This document shows positions 2,830 through 27,532 of a DNA stretch of 41,556 nucleotides, piece by piece. The notes beneath the pieces were generated by a model. It saw only the letters and a program-made list of their open reading frames with translations, was not told where the DNA came from and searched no databases. Source of the DNA: an uncultured virus (IMG/VR IMGVR_UViG_3300035191_000065) (Duplodnaviria; Heunggongvirae; Uroviricota; Caudoviricetes); IMG/VR virus record IMGVR_UViG_3300035191_000065; one strand, 5' to 3'. The position numbers were made by a program, and so were the translations under genes. Every line of letters begins with the position of its first letter. Position 1 is the first letter of the stretch.

Positions 2830-3180
2830 ATGTATTCTCTCGCTCCTCTCGGCAGTGAAGCACTGCAACAGCCGACCGAGAGTGGCGGTTTACTTTCGTT
2901 GTCTCAGCAGGACTGGGACATCATCAAGCTCCTGGTGAAAATCGGTGTCGTAGGAACGATTGTTAGCCTGCCAATCGGGCTGTGGGCTATCAAGAAGTGG
3001 CCAGAAAGGCCAATAATTCCGGCGATTATTCTGACGGCCGTCGGGCTCGCCATCAAAGAGATGATGCTTTCGCATGGCGAGGAGGAGGAGCCGACCGGGA
3101 CAGAGCTTTACGAGGCTCCGCAGCTTGCTGGCTACTCTCGGGTGCCTGTCTACGTGCCCTATCGAGCCGCTGCGAACTGA
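2830..3180 (+). CDS. Small two-TM membrane protein
   Basis: Two hydrophobic segments flanking KKWPE (KKWPE also occurs in 13212..13757). Begins MYSLAPLG. Confidence 0.7.
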   Translation: MYSLAPLGSEALQQPTESGGLLSLSQQDWDIIKLLVKIGVVGTIVSLPIGLWAIKKWPERPIIPAIILTAVGLAIKEMMLSHGEEEEPTGTELYEAPQLAGYSRVPVYVPYRAAAN

Positions 3181-3196
3181 GCTGCCAAGGTTCGTT

Positions 3197-3250
3197 CATC
3201 CTCAAGACGCTTGCTTTAACATTTAAAGGCGTGATATGTTCTATCACGCC
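3197..3250 (+). promoter_or_regulatory. Putative promoter with two operator-like sites
   Basis: CATCCTCAAGACG (3197-3209). TTGCTT (3211-3216), 18 bp, TATGTT (3235-3240) with extended TG. Perfect inverted repeat GGCGTGATA-5nt-TATCACGCC (3228-3250). This is the longest intergenic gap. Confidence 0.55.
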
Positions 3251-3300
3251 GGCCCCCTTCTGAGAAATTCAGAGAGAACTCCACCCTCAGGAGGATGGGA

Positions 3301-5142
3301 ATGCCTTACGAGCACTACCCCATGGCCGGCATGGGCGCTGCATCAACAGTCCAAACGTCGATTTCAAGAACACCTGCTTCAAAATCGGCCTACTACCCAA
3401 CGTCAATCCCAACCATCGGGAAATCTGCGCCATCACAGGTTTCGACTGTCTCAGTGGCGCCAACTTCGACGGCGCGCACAGTGGCGCCAACGATGGTTGT
3501 GAAATCGACCGCTGGAAAAGCGGCGCCCACAGTTCCGATGTCCGCTGTGAAGGCTGTCGACGTTGCAACTCTTCGAATGTACCTGCGAAAGCGGTATCCG
3601 ATATCTGTCTTTAACTCTATCAACTGGCATGCGACACCGATTCGGGTTCCTGCTGCAAACTATCGCAACTACCTCAACGCAAAGGCCAGAGTCCTCAGGA
3701 CGCTGAAGGATTCGATCACGATCACCGATATCGCGAAGAAGATTCAGCAGCAAGAAGCTGTGTCTCTTGCGGTCGCCCAACAACGTGCGCTCGGCAAGGT
3801 CGAGCTGTTCAAAAGCTGGTGTGAGGGGTGTGATAAGGACTTCTGGGCTGCGCTTCACACCTTTGCATCTTCGGCGAGCACTGTGTATCCGAATCATATC
3901 CCGGCTCTAACCTTCCAATACTGGGATATCCGCCAGGATGCTCGGAACGGAAATGGGGGGAGAAGCGCCCCCGCGCCTGTAGGTTCGATTGGTCTCGGCG
4001 CTATCGAAGTCGGCGCAGTGCAGCGGCACGCTGAGCAGCGAAGAGACGCGGAGAAGCGACGGAGCCAGGAGGTGCGCGATCTGAGGGCTAGGCATGACGC
4101 CGAAAGAAAGGCCCTGGAGACGGCGACCCCTGAAGTACGTGCAGAGGCTCGTGCTCGTCGCGAGCGAGAACGCACGGATATGTTCGCTCGACACGAGGCC
4201 GAGCGAAAGGCAGAGGACGCGATCCGGAAAACAGACGTCGAAACGGCTGGTGGGTCCAAGCGCTCAACGGCGGTCGGGGTGGTCGCCCCCATCTACGACG
4301 TCGCCGCCGAGAAAAACGTTGTTTCGTGCCCTGTCGGTACGGCTCGCATGGAGATCTTCGGTTACATCGAGCCGACGACCCCTTCAACGGCAGAAGAGGT
4401 CGCTCAAGATGCGACCACAGGTACAAGGCTACTGGTGCGGGGGGAGGAAGTGCACCGCAGAATCATGGAGGGCGAAAGGGAGCCAGAGGATCCTATCTAC
4501 GACGTTGCGAAAGACCCAGAAAAAGCCGAGGAGGCCGTCCTTCAAGCGTCCCAAAAAGAAGAGGAAGTCGAGGATATCAAAGAAAAACTCGACTCGAAGA
4601 AGGACGAGCTTGACGCCAAGAAAGACGAGGTTGCGGCCGGAACCGCAAGCCCTGAGGACTTGGAACGTTTGAAAAAAGAAGTCGATGAGCTGACGGCCGC
4701 GCTCGCCGCCGCTCAGAAGGAACACCTCGAAGCAGCTCGCGTCGCTGCGGAAAAGAACCAGGAGCAGATTTACCGTATGGAGGAGGAAATCAATCGCCTT
4801 CGCCGTCTGCTCGCCGCTGGTGCTGTTCCACAGGGTCAGGTGTCACAGGTTCAAGAGACCATTCAGGACATGGAGCAGGATGTCGCCATAGCTGCTGAGG
4901 ATGTTCTGGATGCTGAAACGGAAGCGAACGAAATACTGCAAGATATCAACCTCACCACCCAGGAGGCTGCGGCTACTGCCCAGGAGGTCGGCCCAGAGAG
5001 AACCTGGTGTCAGCAAAACTGGTGGTGGCTACTCCTTCTCGCGCTCGGGGTAGCAGGCGGTGGCTACTGGTACTACCGCCGTCGTCAACAGGAACTTCCG
5101 TCTTCGCCGTCTGGTCTTGAAGCCAACATGGAAGACTACTGA
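3301..5142 (+). CDS. Large C-terminally anchored coiled-coil membrane protein
   Basis: AGGAGG 6 nt before ATG 3301 (alternative start 3295). Leader MPYEHYPMAGMG, Ser/Thr/Pro-rich region, charged helical and coiled-coil regions, TM WWWLLLLALGVAGGGYWYY followed by RRR. Confidence 0.8.
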   Translation: MPYEHYPMAGMGAASTVQTSISRTPASKSAYYPTSIPTIGKSAPSQVSTVSVAPTSTARTVAPTMVVKSTAGKAAPTVPMSAVKAVDVATLRMYLRKRYPISVFNSINWHATPIRVPAANYRNYLNAKARVLRTLKDSITITDIAKKIQQQEAVSLAVAQQRALGKVELFKSWCEGCDKDFWAALHTFASSASTVYPNHIPALTFQYWDIRQDARNGNGGRSAPAPVGSIGLGAIEVGAVQRHAEQRRDAEKRRSQEVRDLRARHDAERKALETATPEVRAEARARRERERTDMFARHEAERKAEDAIRKTDVETAGGSKRSTAVGVVAPIYDVAAEKNVVSCPVGTARMEIFGYIEPTTPSTAEEVAQDATTGTRLLVRGEEVHRRIMEGEREPEDPIYDVAKDPEKAEEAVLQASQKEEEVEDIKEKLDSKKDELDAKKDEVAAGTASPEDLERLKKEVDELTAALAAAQKEHLEAARVAAEKNQEQIYRMEEEINRLRRLLAAGAVPQGQVSQVQETIQDMEQDVAIAAEDVLDAETEANEILQDINLTTQEAAATAQEVGPERTWCQQNWWWLLLLALGVAGGGYWYYRRRQQELPSSPSGLEANMEDY

Positions 5143-5166: not shown

Positions 5167-6534
5167 ATGACTTATGAGTATATGACAGGGCTCGGGCAGA
5201 TGACGGTAAAGCCACTCGCCGAGGGCACGATGACAATGCCTTCGAGCAATGGTGGTTCTACATCTGGTTCCAGCTCAAGTGGATCTTTCGCCAAAGGATC
5301 CAACCAGTTCACTCTTGCAAGTGCATCTGGAATGAGGACGTTGGTCGGCGGCGCTTCGAGCACTGGAAAGACGGAGACAGAGCAGACCGCTGGAATCCAG
5401 TTGGTTATTTTCGGGACCATCCTGACGCCGACCAATCCTCCCGGAACTGTCCTGACGATGCCCGAGGAGCGCTACAGCCTCAAGATGTGGAACTGCCAGA
5501 TGTTTGGCAGCTCTTCGGCGGCATGCCGAAAGGATGAGGACCCCGAGTACACCTACATGGAGGCGGAGCTTCTGGCCGATTTCCGCAACGCCATGCTTTC
5601 TCAGGCTCAGCTCGGGCGCGATTTCTTCAACCCTGTCGCGGCTGCAACGACAACGCTGAAAAAGAGACGTGCGGAGGAGGATCGTAAAAGGTTCTTTTCA
5701 TGGTGGCGTCGTTGCCACAAGCCCACGTGGGCTATGTGGCTGACCACACACACTTTCAACGACAGCATCGTTCCGAGAGATGCCTTCAACTGGTTCGTCA
5801 GTCACCACGGCAGCAAGCTGCTTGGTGGTGGGACATTCGGGAAGAGCACGAGAACGCCGCCCTGTCCCAGCTCATCAACGCTCAATAGCCTGTTCAAAAT
5901 CAAGGACCAGTGGAAGGCGTCCGAAATGGCGGTCGCCCCGCCTGCTCAGGCAGGGCGAGACCCAGATACCCCTGTCGAATACCAGCCGCCAACAGATCCC
6001 GCAGAGATCGCCCAGATGACTTGCAAGCCAGGGGCTACTCTCTCGGTTATCGCTGAAAAGCGCTACGAGGAGCAGATGAGGGCAGAGGGCTGTGGTGTCG
6101 TGAAAACGATCGTCAGCGGAGCCCCAGACAAGAACATCTACTGCTGTCCACCAGACTTCCTGAGGCCATGGGAAACTCCTCCGGGGGTCGATCAGCGCGG
6201 GCAGCCTCAGCCGGAAACGGCTCCAGTCGATGATGCTGAGGGGCATGTTACGGTGACGACTCCGACACCGGAGCTAGATGTCGATCTCTCACCACTCGTG
6301 ACGAACGGGAATGGGAACGGCGCTCCTCTCTATACCAATGGCGACCTGTTGGATGAAGAGCCCGGTTTCTTCTCTCGCTACAAGTGGTTCATCGCGATCG
6401 GCGCACTCGCGGCAATGGGCGGAGCCGCCTGGTGGTGGGTGAGACGATCCAGGGCCGAAGAAGAGGTGGCCGAGCTGGCTGAAAACATGATGCTTCCCCC
6501 ACCAAAATCTCGACGTCACCCGTCGGGCCTGTAG
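5167..6534 (+). CDS. C-terminally anchored membrane protein with YEYMTGLG leader and CCP module
   Basis: MTYEYMTGLG; C..GC..YCCPP; NGNGNG; TM WFIAIGALAAMGGAAWWWV followed by RRSR. Confidence 0.8.
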   Translation: MTYEYMTGLGQMTVKPLAEGTMTMPSSNGGSTSGSSSSGSFAKGSNQFTLASASGMRTLVGGASSTGKTETEQTAGIQLVIFGTILTPTNPPGTVLTMPEERYSLKMWNCQMFGSSSAACRKDEDPEYTYMEAELLADFRNAMLSQAQLGRDFFNPVAAATTTLKKRRAEEDRKRFFSWWRRCHKPTWAMWLTTHTFNDSIVPRDAFNWFVSHHGSKLLGGGTFGKSTRTPPCPSSSTLNSLFKIKDQWKASEMAVAPPAQAGRDPDTPVEYQPPTDPAEIAQMTCKPGATLSVIAEKRYEEQMRAEGCGVVKTIVSGAPDKNIYCCPPDFLRPWETPPGVDQRGQPQPETAPVDDAEGHVTVTTPTPELDVDLSPLVTNGNGNGAPLYTNGDLLDEEPGFFSRYKWFIAIGALAAMGGAAWWWVRRSRAEEEVAELAENMMLPPPKSRRHPSGL

Positions 6535-6543
6535 GGGGACGGC

Positions 6544-7329
6544 ATGTCTTACGTGTTCATCTCGCCCTACTATAACGTGACTCGTTGTCCGACGGATGGC
6601 GAGGATCAGGGCATGGGCGCTGAATTCTTCGGCCCAGATCAGCCGTGGAGTCGTGAGAACGCGGGAAAGTGGATCACGTCGGAAACGCGTTCCTGTCCGA
6701 GTTCAAACGAGCGCAGCCATCTTCCGCCAAATTTGGGGCCTCCAAAGTATGCGCACCGGGGCGAAATGGTTCCGGATACAGCCTGCTACAAGACGGGACG
6801 TATCCAAGAAGCAAGAGCGCCTGGTGGCTCTCGTCGAGAAGAATGGTGCTGCCCAAAGCACACCTATGCTCCCAAGCGAACGCTGACGGCTGAAGAGGCT
6901 GATCGTTATCTATCGCTGGGGGTTTGCAACCCCATCACGATGCCGACAACGGGCGAGGAGTACCCGAGTGACCCAGAGTGGCGCGACAAGGATGCCTATA
7001 TTCCGAACACCTGCCACACGACATCGGTCTATGACGGCGATTACAGGCTCATCTGCTGTAAGCGGAAAGAGCCTGGAAAAGTCCGTTTCGTAATGCCGGA
7101 AAACGGCATTCAGTTCGCGGCGCCCAGCGCCGAGATGATTGAGCAGCAGGCTCAGGAGCGAGAGGCGCGAATCGCTGAGACAGAGAGGATGCTCGCAGAA
7201 ACGGCAGAGCCTCAGTACGGGTTCTTTCAACGATACGGCGTTTTCCTGCTCCTCGGCGTTGGAGCATTGGGAATCGGAATCACAGCCGGGCTCGTCAAGA
7301 GGGCCAAGGCGAAGAAGGACGAAGAATAA
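6544..7329 (+). CDS. Cys-rich C-terminally anchored membrane protein (paralog of 9581..10324)
   Basis: QGMGA; WCCPK and LICCK; AEPQYGFFQRYG, TM, basic tail. Confidence 0.8.
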   Translation: MSYVFISPYYNVTRCPTDGEDQGMGAEFFGPDQPWSRENAGKWITSETRSCPSSNERSHLPPNLGPPKYAHRGEMVPDTACYKTGRIQEARAPGGSRREEWCCPKHTYAPKRTLTAEEADRYLSLGVCNPITMPTTGEEYPSDPEWRDKDAYIPNTCHTTSVYDGDYRLICCKRKEPGKVRFVMPENGIQFAAPSAEMIEQQAQEREARIAETERMLAETAEPQYGFFQRYGVFLLLGVGALGIGITAGLVKRAKAKKDEE

Positions 7330-7350: not shown

Positions 7351-8232
7351 ATGTACGAGTACATGACAGGAATGGGGACTCAGGCATTCACGGACAGCGG
7401 GATACAACTTGGCCCTGGAGTTCCAGTGCCGCCTGATTCGGGGATCATTTTGGGCGCACCCACTTCGGTTGGTCCTGACCCGGGGATTATCCTTGGCCCC
7501 CCTGAATCCCTTCCTTCAGGTGGGATGGTTTCTCCGGAGCTGACGGTGTTCGTCGACGAGCTGAAGGCCGAGAAGGGACCCTTCGTCTACCTGGACAAGG
7601 ATTCGCCCAGCGGCATGGAGTTCGTTCAGTGGCTCATGGCCTATGACCAGGGCTACATGGACTGGTTCATGAAAATCATGGCCCTGAAGCTGTCCAAAGA
7701 CTTGTTCATGGCCGAGGGCGTTGTGCTCCCCGAATGGCTCGAAGGAAACACTCTTCGGTTCAAGCAGGAGCTGTACAACCTCTACGTCGCCTCGATGAAT
7801 CGTGTCCGGGCGCTTGTCGCCGCTGGAACGACGATGCCGGCCCTCGCTGATATGGAACCATTCCTTCGTTGGTGGGCTGAGGTCGATCGAGCGGGCTTTG
7901 CTGCCTTCATCGTCCAGAACGCTGAGGCTGGTGCCACTCCGACTGCGCTCCCTGTTCCCGCTGAGCTTTTCGCCTTCGCGAAGTCGACTCAGTGGAAGGG
8001 TGTTCCGTCGAACGCGATGCTCGGGCTCGACCACCCGCTTTGGGCAGGGATCAAGAATAACTGGTTTTGGATCCTCGGCGGCGTCGTTGGCGGTGCTGTC
8101 GCGGCCAAGGCGTGGAGAAACCGTCAGGAAAAGAAGGCGGTGGAGAGGCTGGGCAAGGCCAAGACTGTTCCGGCTGAGACAATGGTCGAGGTCCCGCGCC
8201 GAAACAAGACTCCCTGCAAGAACTGCTGGTGA
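7351..8232 (+). CDS. Membrane protein with YEYMTGMG leader
   Basis: MYEYMTGMG; three D-[SP]-G-I-x-L-G repeats; TM WFWILGGVVGGAVAAKAW; tail RRNKTPCKNCW. Confidence 0.8.
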   Translation: MYEYMTGMGTQAFTDSGIQLGPGVPVPPDSGIILGAPTSVGPDPGIILGPPESLPSGGMVSPELTVFVDELKAEKGPFVYLDKDSPSGMEFVQWLMAYDQGYMDWFMKIMALKLSKDLFMAEGVVLPEWLEGNTLRFKQELYNLYVASMNRVRALVAAGTTMPALADMEPFLRWWAEVDRAGFAAFIVQNAEAGATPTALPVPAELFAFAKSTQWKGVPSNAMLGLDHPLWAGIKNNWFWILGGVVGGAVAAKAWRNRQEKKAVERLGKAKTVPAETMVEVPRRNKTPCKNCW

Positions 8233-8236: not shown

Positions 8237-8548
8237 ATGGCCTACGTCAGGACATCAGCGGCGCCTCTGGGTGTCGTGAGGACGGACACTCCGGAAGAGC
8301 GTGACGCTCTTGTCGCTGAGATGTTGGCGACTCCCGGAACGACGCAGCACTACGTCGGCTCGCGAGAGATCGAGGTTGGCGATACGTCCGTGCGCGTCCT
8401 CCCTGGTGTTCTGACGGTCAATTGGTACGGTGTCGCGATGCTGGGTGCTGTCATTGTTGGCGGTATCGCGGTCTACAAGCTTGTTTTCACAGAGAGCGGG
8501 AAGCGTCGCATCAACGAGATGATGCGTCGGTGGGCGTTGGAGTCCTGA
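8237..8548 (+). CDS. Small C-terminally anchored membrane protein
   Basis: ATG 8237, 4 nt after the upstream stop. MAYVRTSAAPLG; TM WYGVAMLGAVIVGGIAVYKL. Confidence 0.7.
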   Translation: MAYVRTSAAPLGVVRTDTPEERDALVAEMLATPGTTQHYVGSREIEVGDTSVRVLPGVLTVNWYGVAMLGAVIVGGIAVYKLVFTESGKRRINEMMRRWALES

Positions 8549-9063
8549 TGGCATACGAGTACACAACGGCCTTGGCCGACTTGGACCCCGAGTCCTATGC
8601 CTATCGCGAGCTGTACAGCAGGATTGGCGCAGGACGAGGCGCTTTCAGACGAGCGACCGGCCGACCATGTCCCGAGACCGAGGGTGGACAGCGTTTCGCT
8701 CAGATGGACTGGATGGACGCCGAGCTGTACGGCCGCGCCGGTTGTGTAGACCTCGGTACGCAGGCTGTTCGAGCTGGCGTCGAGTGGAGCGATCCAGACG
8801 AAGAAAGACCGTTTGGCGCTAGAGCAATCCGCGACTACACGGACGTCTGGTGTTGCAACCCAGAGCGTGTCGAGCAGGTTTTTCAACAGTGGACTGAGAG
8901 CGATCAGTATCAGTCGAGGCGAAGGACCATCGGCGTCATCCTTGTTGTTGGTGTTCTCGCGGCGCTCGCCTTGGTCGTGTGGAGTTGGAAGAAACGGGTC
9001 CAGGCTGGAGAGGACATTCCGTTCCTCGGCAAGACCGTAACGAGGGTAAGCCATGGCGTATGA
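8548..9063 (+). CDS. Membrane protein with YEY leader and CC module
   Basis: TGATG coupling; MAYEYTTALA; C..GC..VWCCNP; TM followed by KKR. Confidence 0.75.
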   Translation: MAYEYTTALADLDPESYAYRELYSRIGAGRGAFRRATGRPCPETEGGQRFAQMDWMDAELYGRAGCVDLGTQAVRAGVEWSDPDEERPFGARAIRDYTDVWCCNPERVEQVFQQWTESDQYQSRRRTIGVILVVGVLAALALVVWSWKKRVQAGEDIPFLGKTVTRVSHGV

Positions 9064-9577
9064 GTACATGACGGGGATGGGTGCGGGTGAGACGATTTCT
9101 GCTTTCTTTGGACCGGCTTTTCTCAAGCAAGCAACTGAGACGACATCGTCGAATGGCGTGGCAGCTTTTCGTCGTCTTCGTGAAGGTCGCCAGGAGAGGA
9201 TAGCGGCTATTCGCGAACAAGCATGCAGCGGGGTAGGTTGCCCCGATGGCACAGTTCGAGAAGGCGTTCGACCCGACTACAGCGATGCGGTGGCCGCGCT
9301 CGCTCTTGAAAACGAAATGCGCGAAAGAGGATGCTCCCTTCAGTGCATGGAAGATGGGATGTCCTGGTACTGCTGCCCGCAGGCCATTCAACAGATGACC
9401 TTGATGATGCCGACTGAGCTTGAGGTCACTCCGCAGGAAACTGCTGAAACTGCTGCGCCAGCAGAAGAGGCACTGCCCGCTGAGCAGCCGGGCGGCTTCC
9501 CATGGGGAGCCGTCGCGGTGCTGGGAGTTTTGGGTCTCGGTATCGGTGGGGCGGTCTGGTACTGGAAAACGAGGTAG
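9053..9577 (+). CDS. Membrane protein with YEYMTGMG leader and CCP module
   Basis: MAYEYMTGMG; CPDG..RGC..WYCCPQ; TM FPWGAVAVLGVLGLGIGGAVWYW followed by KTR. Confidence 0.8.
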   Translation: MAYEYMTGMGAGETISAFFGPAFLKQATETTSSNGVAAFRRLREGRQERIAAIREQACSGVGCPDGTVREGVRPDYSDAVAALALENEMRERGCSLQCMEDGMSWYCCPQAIQQMTLMMPTELEVTPQETAETAAPAEEALPAEQPGGFPWGAVAVLGVLGLGIGGAVWYWKTR

Positions 9578-19302: not shown

Positions 19303-19905
19303 ATGTACGAATACAACACCGGAAAAAGTGTTTCGACCAAGCCATACCCTACGGCGCTCGGTGCGCTTGGCGATCGCTACATTCCTTTTAGCGAGACCAG
19401 GCGCGTAGCTCCTTGGGCGATCGCTGAGGTCTCTCTGGAAAACGTCAACTGTCGCTGTTACCACAATGCTCCGCGTGAAGAAGTGCTTCGGTCGTCTGTT
19501 CCGTACACCATGGAGATTTCCGTACCGGGGCACAACTTCATCTGCTCCTGCAATGCTTCAACGGAGTGTCCTCCCGAAGTACATCAGGGGGCACATCAGC
19601 GGGATCCGTGGCGTGAGCGCCGCTGCGCTGAATGGAGAGAGCAGTGGCTACAAGAGGGCGCTGATCTCATCGCGTCTCCGGGGTTCCGTGAGGCCATGAG
19701 CGAGAAGGTTCTTGACGTCGCTGGCATAACCGGTTGGCGAAGGAGGCTTGTCAAGCCGGCCGAGTTTCTTCAGGTCATCGAAGAACGAGAGCGGCGAGAG
19801 CGACCGATCAAGGCGTTTGCGATCATCACCCTTGCTGTTGGTGGAGGCGCCCTGTTCTGGACGTGGCTCCGCAAGCGTAAGAAAGCTCGTGAGGGCGAAG
19901 AATAG
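19303..19905 (+). CDS. C-terminally anchored membrane protein with YEY leader
   Basis: MYEYNTG..ALGALG; CxC motifs; TM followed by RKRKK. Confidence 0.8.
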   Translation: MYEYNTGKSVSTKPYPTALGALGDRYIPFSETRRVAPWAIAEVSLENVNCRCYHNAPREEVLRSSVPYTMEISVPGHNFICSCNASTECPPEVHQGAHQRDPWRERRCAEWREQWLQEGADLIASPGFREAMSEKVLDVAGITGWRRRLVKPAEFLQVIEERERRERPIKAFAIITLAVGGGALFWTWLRKRKKAREGEE

Positions 19906-20576: not shown

Positions 20577-20984
20577 ATGTCTCAGTACGTGCGAAGGACA
20601 TACGGACCCGGCGACATCGCCGCGCTTCCACCAACGATCGGACTGACGAGCCGGGAACCGACAATCGGTGCTGAGGACGTCGGCCGACCTATCAAGCCAG
20701 CTTTCCCGTTCAAGCCGATGCATCCGAAGGCTGGAGCACCGGTTCGACAGGCTGGGCTGTTTGGGATGGGCCTGGATTACCAGGTCTTTCCAACGGTTTA
20801 CTGTGGAGGTGCACCTGCCGGATCAGGCAATCGTGGAGCCGGTGCTGGCATGGGAACCAATGGCAGCGGAAACGGAAACGGAAACGGTGGTTGGATGCTC
20901 CCCGTGGGCGTCGGTCTGGCCATCGGAATCGGTCTCGCCTACATGCTGCGAAAGCGCGAGGAAGAGGCCGAGCTGGCTTTCTAG
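20577..20984 (+). CDS. Small Gly-rich membrane protein (paralog of 21012..21359)
   Basis: MSQYVRRTYGPG..PTIG; two GMG motifs; NG repeat; C-terminal TM; GGTGTAGAA before ATG. Confidence 0.8.
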   Translation: MSQYVRRTYGPGDIAALPPTIGLTSREPTIGAEDVGRPIKPAFPFKPMHPKAGAPVRQAGLFGMGLDYQVFPTVYCGGAPAGSGNRGAGAGMGTNGSGNGNGNGGWMLPVGVGLAIGIGLAYMLRKREEEAELAF

Positions 20985-21011
20985 GCCAGCAGGAATCAGG
21001 AGAGGTAGAAA

Positions 21012-21359
21012 ATGTCTCAGTACATCATGAAGTCTTACGGCCCCGGAAGCATCGGTGCGCTCATCCCGGGCGCAGCGCTCTCACATCCGCCGACGATCGG
21101 CTCGAACGATCCCATCAGGGATATCGGCTCAGCCGTTCACGGTGCGTCCAGGATTCCAGCGGCTCCGACGGGTCGCGTTCCCTCGATGGGGGGCTGCGGC
21201 TGTGGAATGGGTGTGGACAACGGCGTCTTCTCGAACGGCGACGGCGTGTTCAGCGGCATGGGAACGGCCAACGGCAACGGCAGCATGATGCCGTTCCTCG
21301 GTCTCATTCTCGCACCGGTCGCGGCGGTCGGCATCGTGTGGGGACTCTCCAAGCTCTAG
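21012..21359 (+). CDS. Small Gly-rich membrane protein
   Basis: MSQYIMKSYGPG..PTIG; GCGCGMG; FSGMG; C-terminal TM; GAGGTAGAAA before ATG. Confidence 0.8.
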   Translation: MSQYIMKSYGPGSIGALIPGAALSHPPTIGSNDPIRDIGSAVHGASRIPAAPTGRVPSMGGCGCGMGVDNGVFSNGDGVFSGMGTANGNGSMMPFLGLILAPVAAVGIVWGLSKL

Positions 21360-21368
21360 GAGGGTTCC

Positions 21369-21797
21369 ATGTACGAGTCGAACAGGTCGGGCGCTGGCTG
21401 CCTGGGCTGTGAGGAGAGCGGTCTCGGCGTAATCGGAATGATAGGCCGGCGTCTCGAAGGTGGTGCCGCGCTGGCGGCTCATGCATCGCAGCTCATGCAG
21501 GAGAACCCGCAAGGGTTCCAGGTGATGGCCGAGGCCCTTACTGCAGCTTCAGAGCAGCAGAAAGAGCAGCGACGACAAGAACACCTGGCGCGGCAAGAAG
21601 CTCAGCAGGCCGCGGATCAGGCTGAATGGGAGTCTGGTCGCCAGGCGACGCAAGAGCGACTAATGCGTCAACAGGCCGAGGCAGAGCAGCGAACTGGGAT
21701 GATCGTCATGGGGATTGGCGGTGTCGTCCTCCTCTCTCTGGTTGGCGGCGGTATTTGGTGGCTCGTCAAGAGAAGGCGAGCCGCGGAGGAGGAGTGA
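21369..21797 (+). CDS. Small membrane protein with GCLGC leader
   Basis: MYESNRSGAGCLGCEESGLG; Gln-rich helix; TM ending GGGIWWLVKRRR. Confidence 0.8.
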   Translation: MYESNRSGAGCLGCEESGLGVIGMIGRRLEGGAALAAHASQLMQENPQGFQVMAEALTAASEQQKEQRRQEHLARQEAQQAADQAEWESGRQATQERLMRQQAEAEQRTGMIVMGIGGVVLLSLVGGGIWWLVKRRRAAEEE

Positions 21798-22078
21798 TGT
21801 ACGAGTACAACCCTCACGGAATGGGAAGCGAGCCCGTTCTTCTCAACATCGGGCCACAGATTTCATCGATCGATCCGGAATTCGCTGCTCAGCAACAGGC
21901 GGCTCGTGCTGCTGCCGAGGCTGGAGAGGAAGACATCCCTCACCCGGAGCCTGGTGGTTTCGAGCATGAGGAGGGGCTCCCGTGGTGGGTTTGGGGCGTC
22001 GGAGGCGTGGCAATACTCGGGGCCATCGGTGGTGGTGTCTGGTGGTGGATGAAACGCGGCGAATCCGAGGAGGAGTAG
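21797..22078 (+). CDS. Small membrane protein with YEY leader
   Basis: MYEYNPHGMG; SIDP; PWWVWGVGG..GGGVWWWMKRGESEEE. Confidence 0.8.
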   Translation: MYEYNPHGMGSEPVLLNIGPQISSIDPEFAAQQQAARAAAEAGEEDIPHPEPGGFEHEEGLPWWVWGVGGVAILGAIGGGVWWWMKRGESEEE

Positions 22079-22081
22079 GCC

Positions 22082-22369
22082 ATGTATCAGGCAAGCACAT
22101 CAGGAACAGGTTGTCTTGGGTGCGGCCTGGGTACAGAGGATGATTCCTCGGGCCAAATGATGAGGATCGTGAGTATCGATCCTTCGGCCATTCGGTTCGC
22201 GTTGGCCGCTCGTCAGGGTGAAGTTACAGGCCTGCCAACAAATGGCCAGGTGAGTGCTCCTCCTGGGATGCCTTGGTGGGTTTGGGGCGTTGCTGGTGTT
22301 GGGCTGCTTGGTTTCATTGGCGCAGGCGTCTGGTGGTATCTGCGGCCGAGCGAAGAGGCAGCGGAGTAA
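22082..22369 (+). CDS. Small membrane protein with GCLGC leader
   Basis: MYQASTSGTGCLGCGLG; SIDP; PGMPWWVWGVAGV TM. Confidence 0.8.
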   Translation: MYQASTSGTGCLGCGLGTEDDSSGQMMRIVSIDPSAIRFALAARQGEVTGLPTNGQVSAPPGMPWWVWGVAGVGLLGFIGAGVWWYLRPSEEAAE

Positions 22370-22390
22370 CCGCGGTAGAAAAGGGTTTTC

Positions 22391-22747
22391 ATGTATCAGC
22401 AGAGCACAGCAGGGGCCGGGTGTCTTGGGTGCGGCCTTGGGTCAGTTATCGCATCGGTCCAAGATCGGGGGGGTATCAGCACTGTAGGTCCAGGGACTCT
22501 TCAGGCGACGAGCTTGATTTCGAGCCCCGGCGTTCGCGGCGTAATACAAGCCATCGAAAGAGGCGACATCGTGCTCCCCGATCCCGAGCAGCAGAGCACA
22601 ACAGATACTTACGCCCTTGATGAGCCAGGAGCCCCAGGGATGCCAATGTGGGTCTACGGTGTAGCTGGCGTTGGTATTCTCACACTCGTTGGCGGAGGCA
22701 TTTGGTGGCTCATCAAGCGTGGCGAGGGCGAAGAGTCCGAGGAGTAG
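22391..22747 (+). CDS. Small membrane protein with GCLGC leader
   Basis: MYQQSTAGAGCLGCGLG; PGMPMWVYGVAGV..GGGIWWLIKRGE. Confidence 0.8.
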   Translation: MYQQSTAGAGCLGCGLGSVIASVQDRGGISTVGPGTLQATSLISSPGVRGVIQAIERGDIVLPDPEQQSTTDTYALDEPGAPGMPMWVYGVAGVGILTLVGGGIWWLIKRGEGEESEE

Positions 22748-22760: not shown

Positions 22761-23147
22761 ATGTACGAATACATGACAGGACTTGGTACTGATGACGTCA
22801 GGCCGATGGGGGTCATGCCAGACGGAAGAACGATTCCTCCTGTCCATGAGTGGGACTGGGCGATCCCCGCGGATGCGAGGTTCCGCGGGATTCAGGTCCC
22901 TGAGACAGAGGAAGAGCGCGAAGCTTTTATGGCGCAGATCGAGGCTGGTCTGGTGCCTGAGGGAGTCTGGGTCAACCCACACTTCCGACAGTGGGGCCGA
23001 CGGCCCGAAGAGGGAGAGCCAGGTCACACGGTCGAGCCCGGCCCAGATCCTGAGAGCGGTGCTTACTGGGTCAAGATCGGGATCGTGTCTGTTGGGATCG
23101 TCGCTCTTATCGGCGGCATCGCTCTGTTCACAACAGCAGGGAAGTGA
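22761..23147 (+). CDS. Small membrane protein with YEYMTGLG leader
   Basis: GGAGG before ATG 22761; MYEYMTGLG; C-terminal TM. Confidence 0.8.
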   Translation: MYEYMTGLGTDDVRPMGVMPDGRTIPPVHEWDWAIPADARFRGIQVPETEEEREAFMAQIEAGLVPEGVWVNPHFRQWGRRPEEGEPGHTVEPGPDPESGAYWVKIGIVSVGIVALIGGIALFTTAGK

Positions 23148-23940: not shown

Positions 23941-24480
23941 ATGTGGAAGATGCGCGCCATAGAGTTCGAGTGTGACGGAAAGACTGTTCTGGTACGTCCT
24001 GGAGAAGACGGCGAGCCAGAGTTCCTCGATTACGACCTTGATCACGATGTGACGCTCGCAGAGATGGGGTATCCAGCAAGCGAGTGCCTTCAGCTTTATC
24101 GCAAGTGGTCGATAAACCCCTACTCCTTCTGCGTCGAAATGGGGCTGTTGCCACCTGCCTTCGACTTTACGCGTCCGATGCTCGTTGTACCGCGGCGTAA
24201 TCTCCCGAAGATGATAAACAGAACCGTCACTCGCATCGGTAACGCGAGCGGTCCCGACGCCAACTGGTACGATCACTACTTCGAGGGTTGGGTAAATGGA
24301 GTCGTCTTTGAGATTCCGCTCGAACCGGGGGCGCGCGAGCAGCTCTACGAAGATGCTGAGCTGGACGAGTATTTCCCTGACATCGTTGATTTTGCCATCT
24401 CGAACGAGATCGAACTCATCAACTTCATGGACCCGGTAGCCGAGCTGCTCCCAGGCTTCCCGGAGTTTGAGCAGTATTAA
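23941..24480 (+). CDS. LxEMGY-module protein 2
   Basis: IEFECDG..YDLDHDVTLAEMGYPASEC; shares PYSF and a [IV]D.[CF]A-type tail with protein 1. Confidence 0.8.
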   Translation: MWKMRAIEFECDGKTVLVRPGEDGEPEFLDYDLDHDVTLAEMGYPASECLQLYRKWSINPYSFCVEMGLLPPAFDFTRPMLVVPRRNLPKMINRTVTRIGNASGPDANWYDHYFEGWVNGVVFEIPLEPGAREQLYEDAELDEYFPDIVDFAISNEIELINFMDPVAELLPGFPEFEQY

Positions 24481-24491
24481 CCGGAGGACTC

Positions 24492-26072
24492 ATGTACGAG
24501 TACAACACAAAAGGTCGACAGCCGCTGGGTCTCATAAACCTGTCGCGTGCTCAGATCTTCAGCCAGGGCCTTGGCGCGATTCAGCCCTCAGAGGCTCAGC
24601 TCTTCAGCGGCATGGGAGCCATCCAGCCCTCCGAAGCTCAGCTCTTTGACGGGATGGGGGCTATCCAGCCCTCCGGTGCGAAGGTGTATCGATTTGGACC
24701 TGGAATCGTCCAGAGGACGAGGTCTCAGCTCGTTGGGAGCTGCGATCCATCGATCGAAGAATGCTGCGTCGGATGTCAGAACTCGGCTCTCTCTAACGTC
24801 GGAGTCGAGGAAAGGACAGGACACTCCTGGCTGTTCTGGGTTGGAATCGGCCTTGGTGTGGGCGGTGCGCTCTACTTGCTTACAAAAAGCGGCATCTTCG
24901 AAAACCCCAGGGACGTCACCGATTCCGAGGCGGCTCAGCAGGCCGCTGCACTCGCAGTGCAGGCAGGGCTTCCCACCATCCTTTGGGGGCCTCCTGGAAT
25001 AGGGAAGTCGAGCTGGCTGGAAGCCCTCGGCGAAGCGATGAACGCCGAGGTCTTTACGGTCATCGGCTCAACCAAGGATCCAGCCGACATTGGCGGCATC
25101 ATGAATCTCGAAGGCAGAACGATCCCGCCCATGTGGGCTCAGAAGATTCGCAAGCGTTCGGACCAGCGAAAGCGCTCGGTTCTGTTCCTGGACGAGTTCA
25201 CGAGCATGAGCCCGCTCGTGCACGCCGCGCTGCTTCGAGTCGTTCGGGAAAAGATCGCCGGAGAGCTGAACTTCGACCCCACTGACAGGTATGTCTCAGT
25301 TGTCGCCGCCGCGAACGCCCCCGAGGAAGGTGCAGGCTCGATGGAGCTTCCTCCTCCGGCCGCTAACCGGCTCATTCATATCAAGTGGGTGCCGCCTTCT
25401 GTTGTGGAGTGGGGAGTGGGGCTTCTTTCTTCGGAGTGGCCAAAGCCTCAGCTCCCGGCACTCCCGAGAGACTGGAAGAGGACTCGTGAGGCTGTCAGCG
25501 CAGAGGAAGACGTCGCGGCTTTCGTCGCCTATCAGCAGAGGTACATGCTGGAACTGCCTGCGACATCGGCAGCAAGAGGCGAGGCATGGCCGAGCCCCAG
25601 GAGCTGGGAGATGGCTGCGGACGCTCTGGGCGCCGCCCGAGTCGTCAACGCTCCTCCCCAGGTCATCTTCAAGCTTGTCTCTGGTGCGGTCGGGATGCTG
25701 CCAGCCAAGAAGTTCTTCGATTGGCTCAACGACCGAGACGCTGTTGATGGACGAGACATTCTCGCAGCTCCCAAGAAATATGAGGTGCAGCTAGGTCGTC
25801 CTGACGTCCTCTATGCCGCCGCAAACGCTGTCGTAAACGAGGTCAAGAAGTCGCCGTCGCGGGATGCCTGGGAGCGGGCTTGGGAGTTCATGGAGCACGC
25901 CAGGGCGAAGTCTGACAGGCCAGAGGTGCTGGCGCTCGCGGCCGACAGGCTGATGGCCTTGACCAAAGACAAGCGCTTCGTGGCAGCCATCAAGGACGCG
26001 GAGATTCCCGAAGACGAAATGCTCGATGAGTATCGCGTCGAGGGTGTTCGAGTCTTCGGAGGTCTACGATGA
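24492..26072 (+). CDS. Membrane-anchored MoxR/AAA_5-type AAA+ ATPase A
   Basis: Walker A GPPGIGKS, Walker B VLFLDEF, sensor I AAAN, Arg finger PPPAANR, PSPRSWE. N-terminal MYEY leader, repeats, TM and ENP. Confidence 0.9.
   Translation: MYEYNTKGRQPLGLINLSRAQIFSQGLGAIQPSEAQLFSGMGAIQPSEAQLFDGMGAIQPSGAKVYRFGPGIVQRTRSQLVGSCDPSIEECCVGCQNSALSNVGVEERTGHSWLFWVGIGLGVGGALYLLTKSGIFENPRDVTDSEAAQQAAALAVQAGLPTILWGPPGIGKSSWLEALGEAMNAEVFTVIGSTKDPADIGGIMNLEGRTIPPMWAQKIRKRSDQRKRSVLFLDEFTSMSPLVHAALLRVVREKIAGELNFDPTDRYVSVVAAANAPEEGAGSMELPPPAANRLIHIKWVPPSVVEWGVGLLSSEWPKPQLPALPRDWKRTREAVSAEEDVAAFVAYQQRYMLELPATSAARGEAWPSPRSWEMAADALGAARVVNAPPQVIFKLVSGAVGMLPAKKFFDWLNDRDAVDGRDILAAPKKYEVQLGRPDVLYAAANAVVNEVKKSPSRDAWERAWEFMEHARAKSDRPEVLALAADRLMALTKDKRFVAAIKDAEIPEDEMLDEYRVEGVRVFGGLR
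24549..24675 (+). repeat. About three imperfect 42-bp tandem repeats encoding AQLFxGMGAIQPS
   Basis: AQIFSQGLGAIQPS-EAQLFSGMGAIQPS-EAQLFDGMGAIQPS. Confidence 0.85.
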
Positions 26073-27532
26073 ACTATCGAGACGACAACGATGATGGGCG
26101 CTACGTAGCAGTTCGCCCTCCGCTCACTGCCCAGCAGGTCATACCCCCGCAGATGGGGGCTATCGTACCCATATACGACGACGACTCTCCGATTGCGAGC
26201 TGCGCAGGGTGTAGTAACCTCGGAACAGAAAATCCTGAGGACGGACAATTTGCTGGACGCCCCTGGTGGTTTTGGGTTGGGATCGGCGTTGGTGTTGGAG
26301 CCGGCATCTACTTCGTCAAGCGCTCCCGTATTCTTCGCAATCCCGATGAGCTGAGTGAGGCTCAGATCGCACAGCAGGCTGCTGCAATCGCCGTCCAGTC
26401 CGGTGTCCCAACCATCTTGTGGGGCGCTCCTGGTATCGGTAAAACGACCTGGCTGGAAGCTCTCGGCGAAGCGATGGATGCCGAGGTCTTCACCGTTATT
26501 GGCTCGACGAAAGACCCGGCAGACATCGGCGGCATCATGAAGCTCGATGGCTCGCTGGTCCCACCAGTTTGGGCTCAGGAGATCAGGGCCAGGGCCGATC
26601 AGGGTAAGCGCTCGGTTCTGTTCCTGGACGAGTTCACGAGCATGAGCCCACTCGTTCATGCCGCTATGCTGCGGGTGGTGCGCGAGAAGATCGCTGGGGA
26701 GCTGAACTTCGATCCGAAGAGCGGGCCGCTCCGTGGAGAGGCATGCAGTGTCGTCGCCGCCGCGAATCCGTCTGGAGAGGGTGCTGGAGCCATCGACTTG
26801 CCGCCGCCAGCGGCAAACCGGATGCTCCACATCAAGTGGCCAGAGCCCTCTGGGATCATCTGGGGTCTCGGTCTGATGCTCGGGTGGGCCAGGCCTCGCT
26901 TGTTCTCACTTCCGAAGGACTGGCGAAAGACTTCAGAGGCCATGAGCGCCAAGGAGGATATTGCGGCCTTCCTTCGTCGTCGTGAAGAGCTTTTCATGAT
27001 GATGCCGAAGACGCAGACAGAGCGCGGCCTTGCGTGGCCGAGCCCGCGAACCTGGGACATGGCGGCAGAAGCCCTCGGGGCAGGACGTGCTGTCTGGGCT
27101 CCGATGGACGTTCAGGCGCTGCTTGTCAAGGGGTGCGTGGGTGAAGGTCCAGGCGGCGAGTTCATGAACTGGATCAAGGAGAGAGACCTGCCAGACGCAG
27201 AAGAGGTCATGCTCGATCCAACCATCTGGGACGTGAAGAACGCCCGCAGCGATCAGATCTACGCTGTCGGTCAGTCGCTCGTCGCGGCGGTACAGCGAAA
27301 GCCCTCAGAAGAGCGTTTCCTTCAGGCGTGGGATGTCGTCGGTTACGTCGTCGACGAGACAAACAAGGTCGACGCAATGTTTACGACGGTCCTCGATCTG
27401 ACCAAGATCGCTACGAGTGATCGCTATCCACAGATCAAGGGCACGAAGCCGCCGAGCCGCCTGGTGAAGAAGTTCTTCCCCATGATGAAAAAGGTCGGCG
27501 TCTTGAAGGGTCTGGCGAAGAAAAAGAAGTAG
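26069..27532 (+). CDS. Membrane-anchored MoxR/AAA_5-type AAA+ ATPase B
   Basis: GAPGIGKT, VLFLDEF, AAANP, PPPAANR, PSPRTWD. N-terminal CAGCSNLG, TM WWFWVGIGVGVGAGIYFV, RNP. Confidence 0.9.
   Translation: MNYRDDNDDGRYVAVRPPLTAQQVIPPQMGAIVPIYDDDSPIASCAGCSNLGTENPEDGQFAGRPWWFWVGIGVGVGAGIYFVKRSRILRNPDELSEAQIAQQAAAIAVQSGVPTILWGAPGIGKTTWLEALGEAMDAEVFTVIGSTKDPADIGGIMKLDGSLVPPVWAQEIRARADQGKRSVLFLDEFTSMSPLVHAAMLRVVREKIAGELNFDPKSGPLRGEACSVVAAANPSGEGAGAIDLPPPAANRMLHIKWPEPSGIIWGLGLMLGWARPRLFSLPKDWRKTSEAMSAKEDIAAFLRRREELFMMMPKTQTERGLAWPSPRTWDMAAEALGAGRAVWAPMDVQALLVKGCVGEGPGGEFMNWIKERDLPDAEEVMLDPTIWDVKNARSDQIYAVGQSLVAAVQRKPSEERFLQAWDVVGYVVDETNKVDAMFTTVLDLTKIATSDRYPQIKGTKPPSRLVKKFFPMMKKVGVLKGLAKKKK

Follow-up and report, generated by a model that had tools for sequence, protein, structure and literature searches.

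A short linear tag is locked to the N-terminus of about 20 single-pass membrane proteins, which carry it at their flexible tip and whose genes belong to one conserved, co-directional module in a lineage of large, uncultivated bacteriophages. The window, i.e., the whole stretch of 41,556 nucleotides analyzed here (IMG/VR record IMGVR_UViG_3300035191_000065), contains these genes between positions 2830 and 27532. The refined motif reads M-(S/T/A)0-1-Y-E-Y, followed by a spacer of two or five residues (rarely up to 21) and G-[LMF]-G, and was found in 76 distinct N-termini. No known signal model recognizes it, none of ten N-termini having an NCBIfam or Pfam match at E <= 10.

Occurrence and position of the tag

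The exact form of the motif, YEYMTG[ML]G, which the initial annotation had reported for five genes, occurs five times in a six-frame search of the window, always on the + strand (positions 5173, 7354, 9059, 9587, and 22764), and never in 30 shuffles. In all five genes (starts 5167, 7351, 9053, 9581, and 22761) it lies one or two residues past the ATG. The variants named in that annotation are also present, further ones were recognized at 6544, 13757, 14317, 20577, 21012, 21369, 22082, 22391, and 26069, and the tag reaches beyond the window, with 13 tagged genes on the adjoining contig G001. The shorter string YEY has 13 six-frame occurrences versus 1.6 per shuffle, ten of them with a start within five residues. 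Matches to Y[EH][YFH]x2-6G[LMF]G are N-terminal in 7/7 cases in the window, 10/10 on G001, and 28/30 at other loci, where the remaining two are preceded by a GTG start; among these 47 cases the full tip-plus-G-x-G motif is never internal. Tyr occupies residue 2-4 in 22 of the 34 genes in 2830-27532 versus 2 of the window's 16 remaining genes (Fisher p = 0.0007); the Tyr content alone would give about 10%. Several tags (8548, 15917, and 19303) lack the G-x-G.

The gene starts of this region are solid. A Shine-Dalgarno core is located at -20 to -4 for 24 of 34 starts, against a background of 22%, and an in-frame stop lies no more than nine codons upstream for 17 of the 34 listed starts (including 5167, 7351, 9053, and 9581), so that a hidden signal peptide has no room there; for the start at 22761 the stop lies 32 codons upstream. 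The early observation that the carriers have no Sec-type signal peptide is borne out by 54 of 55 tagged proteins, in which no hydrophobic segment begins within the first 40 residues.

Conservation

Synonymous differences among the five exact copies affect seven of the eight codons, which points to selection on the peptide, not on the DNA. The tag is kept by orthologues on other contigs at 32-80% overall identity (families W_5167, W_7351, W_9053, and W_9581), and M1, S2, and Y3 are invariant in 9/9 sequences of alignment A1. It is conserved far better than the rest of each carrier and survives between proteins with no other detectable similarity. The description of the carriers as otherwise dissimilar has to be qualified, since 6544 and 9581 are paralogues and carriers share a Cys-rich core. 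A recent duplication of 5' DNA as the origin of the motif is excluded by the varying synonymous sites and by its retention in orthologues. Among 38 distinct motif matches in the metagenome, 20 start proteins, which are encoded on 13 other contigs and end in a transmembrane (TM) segment plus a basic tail; the remaining 18 fall inside unrelated proteins.

The membrane-protein module

All genes described here are on the + strand. The first gene of the module (2830..3180) encodes a conserved protein with two TM segments (MYSLAPLG...), with homologues in the loci L041, L029, L044, and L055. The tagged protein encoded at 3301..5142 (MPYEHYPMAGMG) consists of an S/T/P/A-rich stretch, a charged coiled coil, a C-terminal W/G-rich TM, and an RRR tail. 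Exact tags follow at 5167..6534 (MTYEYMTGLG; YCCP motif, C-terminal TM, basic tail), 7351..8232 (MYEYMTGMG), and 9053..9577 (MAYEYMTGMG; YCCP motif, C-terminal TM). Their orthologues begin with MTYEYMQGMG and MSYEYMTGMG (5167), MSNYEYMTGMG and MSTYEYMMGMG (7351), or MSYEYMTGM., MTYEYRTGMG, and MSYEYMTGFG (9053). A partial tag without G-x-G, MAYEYTT, is located at 8548..9063 (WCCN motif, C-terminal TM), and a degenerate one, MSYVF-x17-GMG, at 6544..7329. The latter protein is a paralogue of the exactly tagged 9581..10324 protein (MSYEYMTGLG; alignment A1), and eight Cys are invariant across the family. In the AlphaFold2 model of the 9581 protein built on A1 (mean pLDDT 71), a beta-rich Cys ectodomain (strands 26-160) precedes a stalk helix and a TM helix (helices 184-207 and 216-246), while residues 1-9 stay below pLDDT 50.

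Three untagged proteins with an N-terminal TM anchor are encoded at 10324..12487 (starts 10324, 11616, and 12104); two are basic, and 12104 carries DUF5661. Variant tags resume in three genes at 13212..15246, namely MSYYGPYGMG (13212), MSYYGPGSLFSLG (13757, start revised), and MSYG (14317, MSYGIQ), with an FCCP motif at 13991, and continue at 15917..16456 (MTYEAYEY; WCCP motif, C-terminal TM) and 19303..19905 (MYEYNTGKS; Cys-rich, C-terminal TM with an RKRKK tail). Six small tagged proteins (93-142 aa) are encoded at 20577..22747, with tags of the types MSQY..YGPG (20577 and 21012), MY[EQ]..GCLGC..GLG (21369, 22082, and 22391), and MYEYNPHGMG (21797). All six have a C-terminal PWW-type TM followed by a basic-acidic tail, and some are mutually related; judged by eye, they resemble the N-module of the ATPases described below. 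The last exact tag, MYEYMTGLG, belongs to 22761..23147 (C-terminal TM).

The carriers share a layout in which a Cys-rich (aromatic-CC-P) or mucin-like N-domain is followed by one TM near the C-terminus and then by basic residues. The motif [WYFI]CC[PNAK] occurs in frame at ten places in the window and marks a Cys-rich core common to carriers. A 19-residue segment with a mean hydropathy of at least 1.5 is present in 39 of 55 tagged proteins, and 51 of 52 complete ones contain a hydrophobic 17-mer past residue 40. In the window, 20 of the 26 proteins that have their first TM past residue 40 bear the tag, versus 2 of 8 others (p = 0.013); the other six with a distant TM are untagged. No soluble cargo with a tag was found, every tagged protein being membrane-anchored. 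As to the membrane-containing virion that the initial annotation held plausible, the search for a jelly-roll or HK97 capsid, a terminase, or an FtsK-type ATPase gave no hit in the sequence searched, about 124 kb of the window's contig lying outside it.

MoxR ATPases and the metallopeptidase

The module includes two MoxR-type AAA+ ATPases. In ATPase A (24492..26072; Pfam AAA_5, 7e-9; phrog_1297, 1.7e-42), whose tag at 24492 reads MYEYNTKGRQPLGL, an N-module (MYEY tag, three to four G[LM]GAIQPSxAQLF repeats, and CCVGC) precedes a TM and the AAA domain. In its AlphaFold2 model (47 sequences), the TM forms a helix (residues 113-132) and the AAA blocks mostly exceed pLDDT 80, while residues 1-6, 8-45, and 51-106 remain below 50. 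As in the W_9581 family, the tag is thus predicted to be disordered. ATPase B (26069..27532) starts with MNY and has a different N-motif, MNYRDDNDDGRYV, followed by CAGC, a TM, and the AAA domain. Among 60 listed N-modules of MoxR homologues, 29 open with MYE[YFL], after which come a Cys motif, RPWW-TM, and the AAA domain. An N-module comprising tag, Cys motif, PWW-type TM, and basic juxtamembrane stretch is common to the small tagged proteins and the MoxR ATPases. The only peptidase in the window, a candidate processing enzyme, is a fusion of a DUF2201_N metallopeptidase (HELWH) with a VWA-like domain containing DxSxS (28272..30005; PF13203, 4.4e-25; PF09967, 1.9e-11); 39 sequences all share H87, H91, D430, S432, and S434. 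G001 contains no MoxR or peptidase-VWA homologue, and no HExxH protein is located near its tagged genes. If G001 is part of the same genome, the missing MoxR and peptidase raise no objection to the address-label reading given below; otherwise, the tag works without them.

Possible functions of the tag

Around the TM, Lys and Arg are asymmetrically distributed: within 15 residues, 110 follow and 38 precede it in 39 tagged proteins (more after in 32, more before in 2, and equal in 5). As the ATPase domain of MoxR needs cytoplasmic ATP, the tagged end most likely lies across the membrane from it, in the periplasm or outside; the positive-inside rule and this argument are the two grounds for the orientation. 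E. coli tail anchors of the ElaB/YqjD type likewise end in PW...G-rich TM...RR, and an N-in, tail-anchored topology is also conceivable.

Tentatively, the tag is interpreted as an N-terminal address label for N-out membrane proteins without a signal peptide. Its recognition while the N-terminus is free or nascent would commit long N-domains that have no such peptide to translocation or insertion, N-out, and the carriers to the assembly of their own gene module; afterwards the tag might be removed at G-x-G. What we infer is that the tagged end is N-out, that the tag acts in export, and that some reader recognizes it; no reader or translocon for the tag was identified, the sole multi-TM candidates being of unknown family. 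To our knowledge, this short, acidic-aromatic, non-hydrophobic tag is unlike any known bacterial export signal. A role in assembly or modification suits membrane-only carriers equally well.

It seems unlikely that the tag is instead a docking or assembly motif retained in the mature protein, in which a disordered tip peptide plus G-x-G repeats would allow one conserved outer-face partner (a host envelope component or a module subunit) to gather the ectodomains into a complex. Such a role is consistent with the predicted disorder, with the membership of every carrier in one membrane module, and with an identical tag on proteins sharing nothing else detectable, suggesting a very conserved partner. 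Moreover, G[LM]G stands at the head of a 14-residue unit that is repeated three to four times in ATPase A (counted by eye) and recurs in homologues, and EYVxxPGGLG is repeated internally in one G001 protein. However, a binding motif could sit anywhere, yet the full motif is N-terminal in 47/47 cases; moreover, no partner was identified.

The initial annotation had proposed a sorting or cleavage signal fitting the adenovirus protease consensus (M/L/I)xGx-G. A dedicated N-terminal signal is supported, the tag being conserved, N-terminal, predicted to be disordered, and tied to a distant TM; the adenovirus-protease reading is not. The canonical MTG[ML]G fits the consensus, as do 37 of the 76 distinct leaders, but 39 break it because the residues preceding G-x-G vary, and Pfam and PHROG searches of the window and the adjoining 182.8-kb contig revealed no clan-CE or adenain-like peptidase. 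The metallopeptidase-VWA, together with the membrane-anchored MoxR ATPases, could still remove a short propeptide at G-[LMF]-G or close to it, which is considered quite improbable. The peptidase has intact HExxH and DxSxS motifs and lies in a co-directional cluster with both ATPases, and close relatives of the three lie on contigs of identical length, which are probably the same ones. In the passages of Iyer et al. 2021 (PMC7824862) concerning jumbo phages, a pair of MoxR and peptidase-vWA is described, and virion assembly with peptidolytic processing is proposed for it. However, the peptidase has neither a signal peptide nor a convincing TM and could contact an external tag only before export, the G001 tagged genes have no HExxH protein nearby, and a propeptide of 7-10 residues would have no evident purpose if it did not also act as a signal.

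Equally doubtful is the tag as an acceptor of covalent modification (Tyr/Thr glycosylation, glycan sulfation, or Tyr sulfation) by cytoplasmic enzymes encoded just upstream. A fusion protein with a GT2-like N-domain and a Sulfotransfer_3-like C-domain (337..1995, +; no TM or signal peptide) and a GT2 glycosyltransferase (1997..2797, +; Pfam Glyco_tranf_2_2, 1.2e-9; Glycos_transf_2, 7.5e-9; Glyco_transf_7C, 1.3e-8) immediately precede the tagged array. The sulfotransferase assignment is based on PF13469 at residues 434-487 (E = 1.3e-5; 26 bits, below the cut-off of 27), an Atlas feature score of 0.97 to Sulfotransfer_3 clusters at residues 290-552, and a P-loop-like GRSFCGSTLL read from the sequence; phmmer against PDB sequences gave nothing significant (one match, E 0.22), which weakens the case. 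A homologue of the 1997..2797 protein lies immediately upstream of tagged genes in L029, L044, and L055, although this association comes from two independent lineages only. The 3' part of another GT2-like gene (1..333, +) continues from G001, positions 1-56 of the window being the exact reverse complement of G001 1-56 and a 293-aa ORF running uninterrupted across the join; the adjoining end of G001 is an island of glycan enzymes of about 25 kb. Tyr sulfation classically occurs where Glu precedes Tyr, as it does in the tag, and Sulfotransfer_3 includes the human TPSTs. Disordered tips would be good acceptors, and the S/T/P-rich stretches of 3301 and 5167 resemble glycoprotein linkers. However, a glycosyltransferase-fused sulfotransferase suggests a sugar as the sulfation target rather than Tyr, sequons need no N-terminal position, and large phages commonly hold glycosyltransferases for other reasons.

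It is very improbable that the tag has no separate function and descends from the end of a single ancestral gene (tip, Cys core, and TM) that was duplicated many times, with only general constraints on paralogues or early translation keeping it: many carriers do share the aromatic-CC-P core and TM type and some are demonstrable paralogues, but the tag outlasts all other similarity, is also fused to MoxR ATPases, and has discrete spacer classes, and its varying synonymous sites defeat DNA-level explanations. In this phage lineage, the tag has the appearance of an address or processing label that has not been described before.

Conservation and spread of the N-terminal tag

The peptide YEYMTG[ML]G, reported in the initial annotation at the start of five proteins, occurs five times in the six frames of the window, always on the + strand and one or two residues past an ATG, and is absent from 30 shuffled sequences. 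The copies differ synonymously in seven of the eight codons (TAT/TAC, GAG/GAA, ACA/ACG, GGG/GGA/GGT, CTC/CTT, etc.), which argues for selection on the peptide and excludes a recent duplication of 5' DNA. A DNA-level palindrome (ATGTACGAGTACAT, resembling an inverted repeat) is ruled out by the same differences. Tyrosine at residue 2-4 is found in 22 of the 34 genes within 2830-27532 vs 2 of the 16 genes in the rest of the window (p = 0.0007), where roughly 10% would be expected.

A set of 76 distinct N-termini, drawn from the window, related loci and MoxR homologues, defines the refined form of the tag. The prefix is M (34), MS (23), MT (14) or another (5), and it is followed by the core YEY (63), YEF (4), YVF (3), YEH (2), YLF (2), YHY (1) or FVF (1). 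The spacer usually has two (33), five (17) or three (5) residues, with a maximum of 21, and the tag ends in GLG (36), GMG (34), GFG (4) or GIG (2). Beyond G-x-G the residues are variable and polar; the first of them is T in 17 cases, A in 15, Q in 8, W in 6, and others. The pattern Y[EH][YFH]x2-6G[LMF]G is N-terminal in 7/7 cases in the window, 10/10 in an adjoining viral contig of 182,770 bases (G001) and 28/30 in other loci, the remaining two following a GTG start. A Cu-binding Met motif and YxxM-type eukaryotic motifs were dropped, since Met is not conserved in the class with five-residue spacers and the genes carry bacterial signals. No literature containing YEYMTG was found, nor, among the papers listed, anything relevant on an N-terminal YEY motif in phage.

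G001 was found by a degenerate DNA pattern for the tag and encodes 13 tagged ORFs (44.4-57.9 kb), all in the same orientation. Window positions 1-56 recur exactly, in reverse complement, as the first 56 bases of G001, and an ORF of 293 aa is continuous across the join. By sequence, G001 is probably an adjacent piece of the same genome; its tagged genes were therefore not counted as independent. Independent support is provided by metagenome contigs, in which 20 of 38 distinct matches begin proteins (on 13 contigs), with a transmembrane (TM) helix and a basic tail last wherever the ends are visible; the other 18 are internal to unrelated proteins, e.g., ABC ATPases. On these contigs, orthologues of window genes follow one another in a conserved order (glycosyltransferase, 2-TM protein, then W_5167, W_6544, W_7351, W_8548, W_9053, W_9581, and W_10321, named by gene start), and the tag is kept in the orthologues. 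Within the W_9581/W_6544 family (nine sequences, 32-80% identity), M1, S2, Y3, and eight cysteines are invariant.

Across about 185,000 species, represented by one genome each, a single one of 24 tag matches, on a 2.8-kb contig from a metagenome bin, is genuine, and one further match at a protein start belongs to a homogentisate dioxygenase. Judging from these sequences, the tag seems confined to this viral lineage, so no host 'reader' can be inferred. A homologue search with the 9581 protein gave only four matches, and the best score in an Atlas search with the 7351 protein (0.86) is a lead only. The region 5100-10400 is nearly identical, with one difference, on contigs of four sequencing runs, which therefore give no population signal on the tag. 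Among the sequencing runs listed, none was of RNA.

Architecture of the tagged proteins

The initial annotation was right that the tagged proteins have no Sec-type signal peptide: 54 of 55 distinct ones are without a hydrophobic segment (19 residues, mean hydropathy >= 1.5) starting in the first 40 residues. Half of the region's 34 starts (17) have an in-frame stop at most nine codons upstream, so that no signal peptide can be hidden there by a wrong start. Correspondingly, the h-region of a type I signal peptide (about 10-15 residues within the first ~30) was not found. The 76 N-termini show neither a Tat twin-arginine motif nor the lipobox L-[AS]-[GA]-C of lipoproteins. They do not resemble a type IV prepilin (class III) signal either: no hydrophobic stretch comes after G-x-G, and no prepilin domain was matched. 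Ten N-termini gave no match at E <= 10 in NCBIfam and Pfam.

The hydrophobic segment lies further along the chain: of 52 complete tagged proteins, 51 have a hydrophobic 17-mer past residue 40. Among window proteins the tag is present on 20 of 26 whose first TM helix lies past residue 40 vs 2 of 8 others (p = 0.013), one of these two being an artefact of the lenient TM threshold. Module proteins without the tag mostly have their TM anchor at the N-terminus instead (10324, 11616, 12104). The claim that basic residues follow the TM helix also holds: in the 39 tagged proteins with a TM helix called at mean hydropathy >= 1.5, K+R residues number 110 after it vs 38 before, with the excess after it in 32 proteins vs 2.

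The description of these proteins as otherwise dissimilar stands only in part. An aromatic-CC-P motif is common to their N-domains, with ten in-frame occurrences in the window and 10 of 11 occurrences in G001 on the tagged strand (31-57 kb), and they are therefore partly distant paralogues. The aromatic-Cys-Cys-Pro follows two earlier cysteines (window 6139-16265 and G001 31-57 kb), which suggests a common small disulfide-rich core; no fold match accompanied it.

An AlphaFold2 model of the W_9581 family (mean pLDDT 71) comprises a β-rich ectodomain, a stalk helix and a TM helix, with residues 1-9 below 50. In the model of ATPase A (24492-26072; 47 sequences, mean pLDDT 77), the AAA domain is confident, and residues 1-6, 8-45, and 51-106 are below 50. 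Because of the low pLDDT in both models, the tag is predicted to be a flexible tip outside any fold. The whole W_9581 model matched nothing at E <= 0.001 (Foldseek against PDB and BFVD), and the best VIA match (Z 4.9) covers the helical stalk and TM helix only.

Two further groups of membrane proteins accompany the tagged ones. Untagged proteins with an N-terminal TM helix (10324-12487, including a DUF5661 protein at 12104-12487 on the + strand, and 19949-20551) have basic, repeat-containing cytoplasmic domains (pI 9.6-9.9). A juxtamembrane (K/R)..NP(E/D/K)-like stretch occurs both in them and in the MoxR ATPases, and they may tether nucleic acid or these ATPases to the membrane. Two paralogues of about 460-490 aa (16470-19300) combine a TM hairpin close to the N-terminus and a C-terminal TM helix with a conserved FAKLFY[IV]ECDKYHCGGYDR stretch and 9-10 cysteines; no family matched them, and the module has no other larger multi-TM protein.

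The strict N-terminal position of the tag, its disorder, the missing signal peptides and the link to a distant TM helix favour, tentatively, its reading as an address label for N-out membrane proteins. A docking motif that is retained on the protein would also be compatible with a flexible tip, and appears somewhat unlikely.

MoxR ATPases and the metallopeptidase-VWA protein

The tagged region ends with two MoxR-type AAA+ ATPases on the + strand, A (24492-26072) and B (26069-27532), recognized by Pfam (AAA_5, 7e-9 and 3e-7) and PHROGs (phrog_1297, ~1e-42). GPPGIGKS/T and LFLDEF are conserved, and a VWA partner is encoded at 28272-30005. About 60 metagenomic homologues (430-577 aa) have an N-module ahead of the AAA domain. 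Besides its N-terminal motif, this module contains G-x-G-x-I-x-P-S-x-A-x-x-F repeats, a Cys motif of the IExCAxGxC type, an RPWW-type TM helix, and a basic juxtamembrane stretch (...NP[ED]). Among the 60 homologues listed, 29 start with MYE[YFL]. In a second class, ...Y.DDDGRYV... replaces MYEY ahead of the same Cys motif and TM helix (start ...DDGRYV); it comprises ATPase B and homologues P0011, P0014, P0017-P0019, P0022, P0025, P0026, and P0031-P0033. Since the AAA domain requires ATP, the tagged end of the N-module would lie on the far side of the membrane. By their likeness to this module, as judged by eye, the small tagged proteins should expose the tag on the far side likewise.

The MoxR alignment matched 80 loci on viral contigs at <=33% identity; 79 of the matches start no earlier than query residue 125 and the other at 95, and none covers the tag or the repeats. 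Residues 1-141 of ATPase A gave seven matches in a representative library, of which P0003, P0053, and P0029 are true relatives and four are unrelated repeat proteins.

The protein encoded at 28272-30005 (+ strand) contains, according to Pfam, DUF2201_N (PF13203, 4.4e-25) and a VWA-like domain (PF09967, 1.9e-11), with HExxH and MIDAS DxSxS motifs. H87, H91, D430, S432, and S434 are invariant in 39 sequences, and the protein is classified from its sequence as a DUF2201 metallopeptidase-VWA with predicted catalysis. That this peptidase and the MoxR ATPases cleave at the tag is unlikely; in favour of cleavage, the two match the pair treated by Iyer et al. 2021 (PMC7824862). When the 7351 protein's first 40 residues were modelled in complex with the peptidase (39-row alignment, Zn and Mg included; no controls), the score of 0.00 lent no support and is evidence neither way. 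Adenain-type cleavage, whose consensus fit was pointed out in the initial annotation, is not supported. Such sites read (M/L/I)xGx-G or (M/L/I)xGG-x; (M/L/I)xGx-G fits 37 of the 76 tags, canonical MTG[ML]G among them, and fails 39, and a Pfam search of 51 proteins of the window and about 197 of G001 detected no adenain-like or clan-CE protease.

Interleaved with the MoxR and peptidase genes (23411-24480, 27535-28275, and 30002-41556) are genes for at least 15 very acidic paralogues (pI 4.0-5.5). These share an N-terminal domain of about 55 residues, the last of which read ...(D/E)x(D/E)..L.EMGY..(x)C, whereas the helical C-domains behind it vary. Apart from one weak Imm5 match no Pfam or PADLOC family matched, and positions 28179-28937 of G001 encode one homologue. 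Possible roles are as MoxR adaptors or in anti-defence.

Genomic context

All credible genes of the window lie on the + strand (G+C about 56%), and few of the products are named by Pfam, PHROGs or NCBIfam. A Shine-Dalgarno core (GGAG/GAGG/AGGA) precedes 24 of the 34 starts in 2830-27532 (background 22%), and G001 encodes 31 tRNA genes and a tmRNA, from which the element is taken to be a virus of bacteria. The tmRNA tag is VNTDNYHEAPLARAA, and the tRNA genes are interspersed with HNH endonuclease genes (L011-L012, G001 166-183 kb). The ATPase of the window is recorded on a contig of 165,556 bases, which suggests a whole genome well above 200 kb; if the contigs abut in one genome, the 95% completeness estimate given for G001 is too high.

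Pfam and PHROGs detected no terminase, HK97 capsid or FtsK-type ATPase across the 182.8 kb of G001. The jelly-roll capsid and FtsK-type packaging ATPase that the initial annotation proposed to look for were not seen either, as window and G001 together yielded no capsid, terminase or FtsK-type ATPase in these searches. PADLOC reported no defence family, one 15.8-bit match aside. A halophile host, suggested by the very acidic downstream paralogues, is ruled out by the median pI of G001 (7.3). The host could not be inferred from the G001 AAA protein, whose tblastn matches in isolated phages have at most 33% identity and come from many host genera.

A large glycan-enzyme island extends over G001 ~0.5-27 kb (L003-L004) and window 1-2797; should the two contigs abut, it immediately precedes the tagged genes. 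It includes several GT2/GT4 glycosyltransferases, a pyruvyl transferase, methyltransferases, radical SAM enzymes, a GDSL lipase and, on the + strand of the window, a GT2-like/Sulfotransfer_3-like fusion (337-1995) and a GT2 enzyme (1997-2797). The C-domain of the fusion scores 26 bits against Sulfotransfer_3 in Pfam (cut-off 27 bits), over its 3' part only, and has an Atlas feature score of 0.97 to this family; a P-loop-like GRSFCGSTLL was recognized by eye. Sulfotransferases of this family bind PAPS through a 5'-PSB P-loop and a 3'-PB region. The fusion protein has no match among PDB sequences and no related loci among viral contigs. The tag might serve as an acceptor for these adjacent glycosyltransferase and sulfotransferase enzymes, which is likewise doubtful. 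Simple inheritance of the tag, with no separate function, is improbable.

Comparison with known systems

Shared N-terminal tags are a means of sorting in cells and viruses, and with every class described, new machinery came to light (Sec, Tat, prepilin peptidase, the capsid targeting sequence (CTS) of phage T4). The CTS is an N-terminal address peptide of T4 internal proteins, which are soluble head cargo encoded near head genes; the prohead protease removes it after L/I-x-E. Both it and the tag are short N-terminal peptides common to otherwise unrelated phage proteins; however, the carriers here all sit in membranes, the tag is not followed by an L/I-x-E site, and neither head genes nor a prohead protease were detected in the window and G001, which represent an incomplete genome. 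Prepilins have a basic leader, a Gly before the cut, a hydrophobic helix of 20 residues right after it, and Glu5. Their short conserved leader on dissimilar proteins and the Gly ahead of a Leu/Met/Phe position resemble the tag, whereas nothing hydrophobic follows the tag, the TM helix is at the opposite end, and no NCBIfam or Pfam model matched.

Special N-terminal motifs also distinguish the accessory-Sec (KxYKxGKxW) and double-glycine leaders, by which glycosylated or modified proteins enter an export path of their own. KxYKxGKxW lies in long hydrophobic signal peptides, and double-glycine leaders have 15-30 residues ending in GG; no NCBIfam or Pfam model matched the tagged N-termini. The poxvirus entry-fusion proteins A16/G9/J5 and L1/F9 are small and Cys-rich, with a C-terminal TM helix and an N-myristoyl Gly; their domains face the cytoplasm and are oxidized by a viral redox system in a eukaryotic virus. 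The tagged proteins are similarly small Cys-rich membrane proteins with a C-terminal TM helix and a conserved N-terminus, but the N-terminal motif differs and no homology was found (Foldseek of the W_9581 model against PDB and BFVD). Unlike adenovirus, the element is a virus of bacteria in which no clan-CE peptidase was detected.

Jumbo phages encode a MoxR and metallopeptidase-vWA pair, for which Iyer et al. 2021 (PMC7824862) proposed a role in virion assembly that involves peptidolytic processing. The window likewise encodes AAA_5/MoxR and DUF2201_N+VWA proteins; unlike the pair as described in the pertinent part of that paper, MoxR is duplicated here, each copy with a disordered N-module and a TM helix. 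The MoxR-vWA of Acidianus two-tailed virus was also compared.

Implications of a possible role in membrane protein sorting during infection

One speculative and improbable scheme extends the address label to a phage-encoded export route. Membrane-bound MoxR-type AAA+ rings, bearing the tag on their own outward N-modules, would together with the metallopeptidase-VWA recognize YEY...G-x-G tips. Long ectodomains devoid of signal peptides, perhaps glycosylated beforehand, would then be driven across the host cytoplasmic membrane, the C-terminal helix staying behind as an anchor. The mitochondrial Bcs1 translocase is the analogue proposed for such a route in a bacterial virus.

The tag is usable as a pull-down peptide, as a search key for the lineage and as a label in reporter fusions. 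It is strictly N-terminal and non-hydrophobic, and it is found on dozens of membrane proteins without signal peptides as well as on membrane-anchored MoxR ATPases. If it is a site of cleavage or modification, its carriers would be the first candidate substrates for the widespread, unexplained MoxR/peptidase-VWA pair of phages, or for a phage sulfotransferase. If it directs insertion or export, it would reveal an undescribed route by which large ectodomains are placed in the bacterial membrane during infection.
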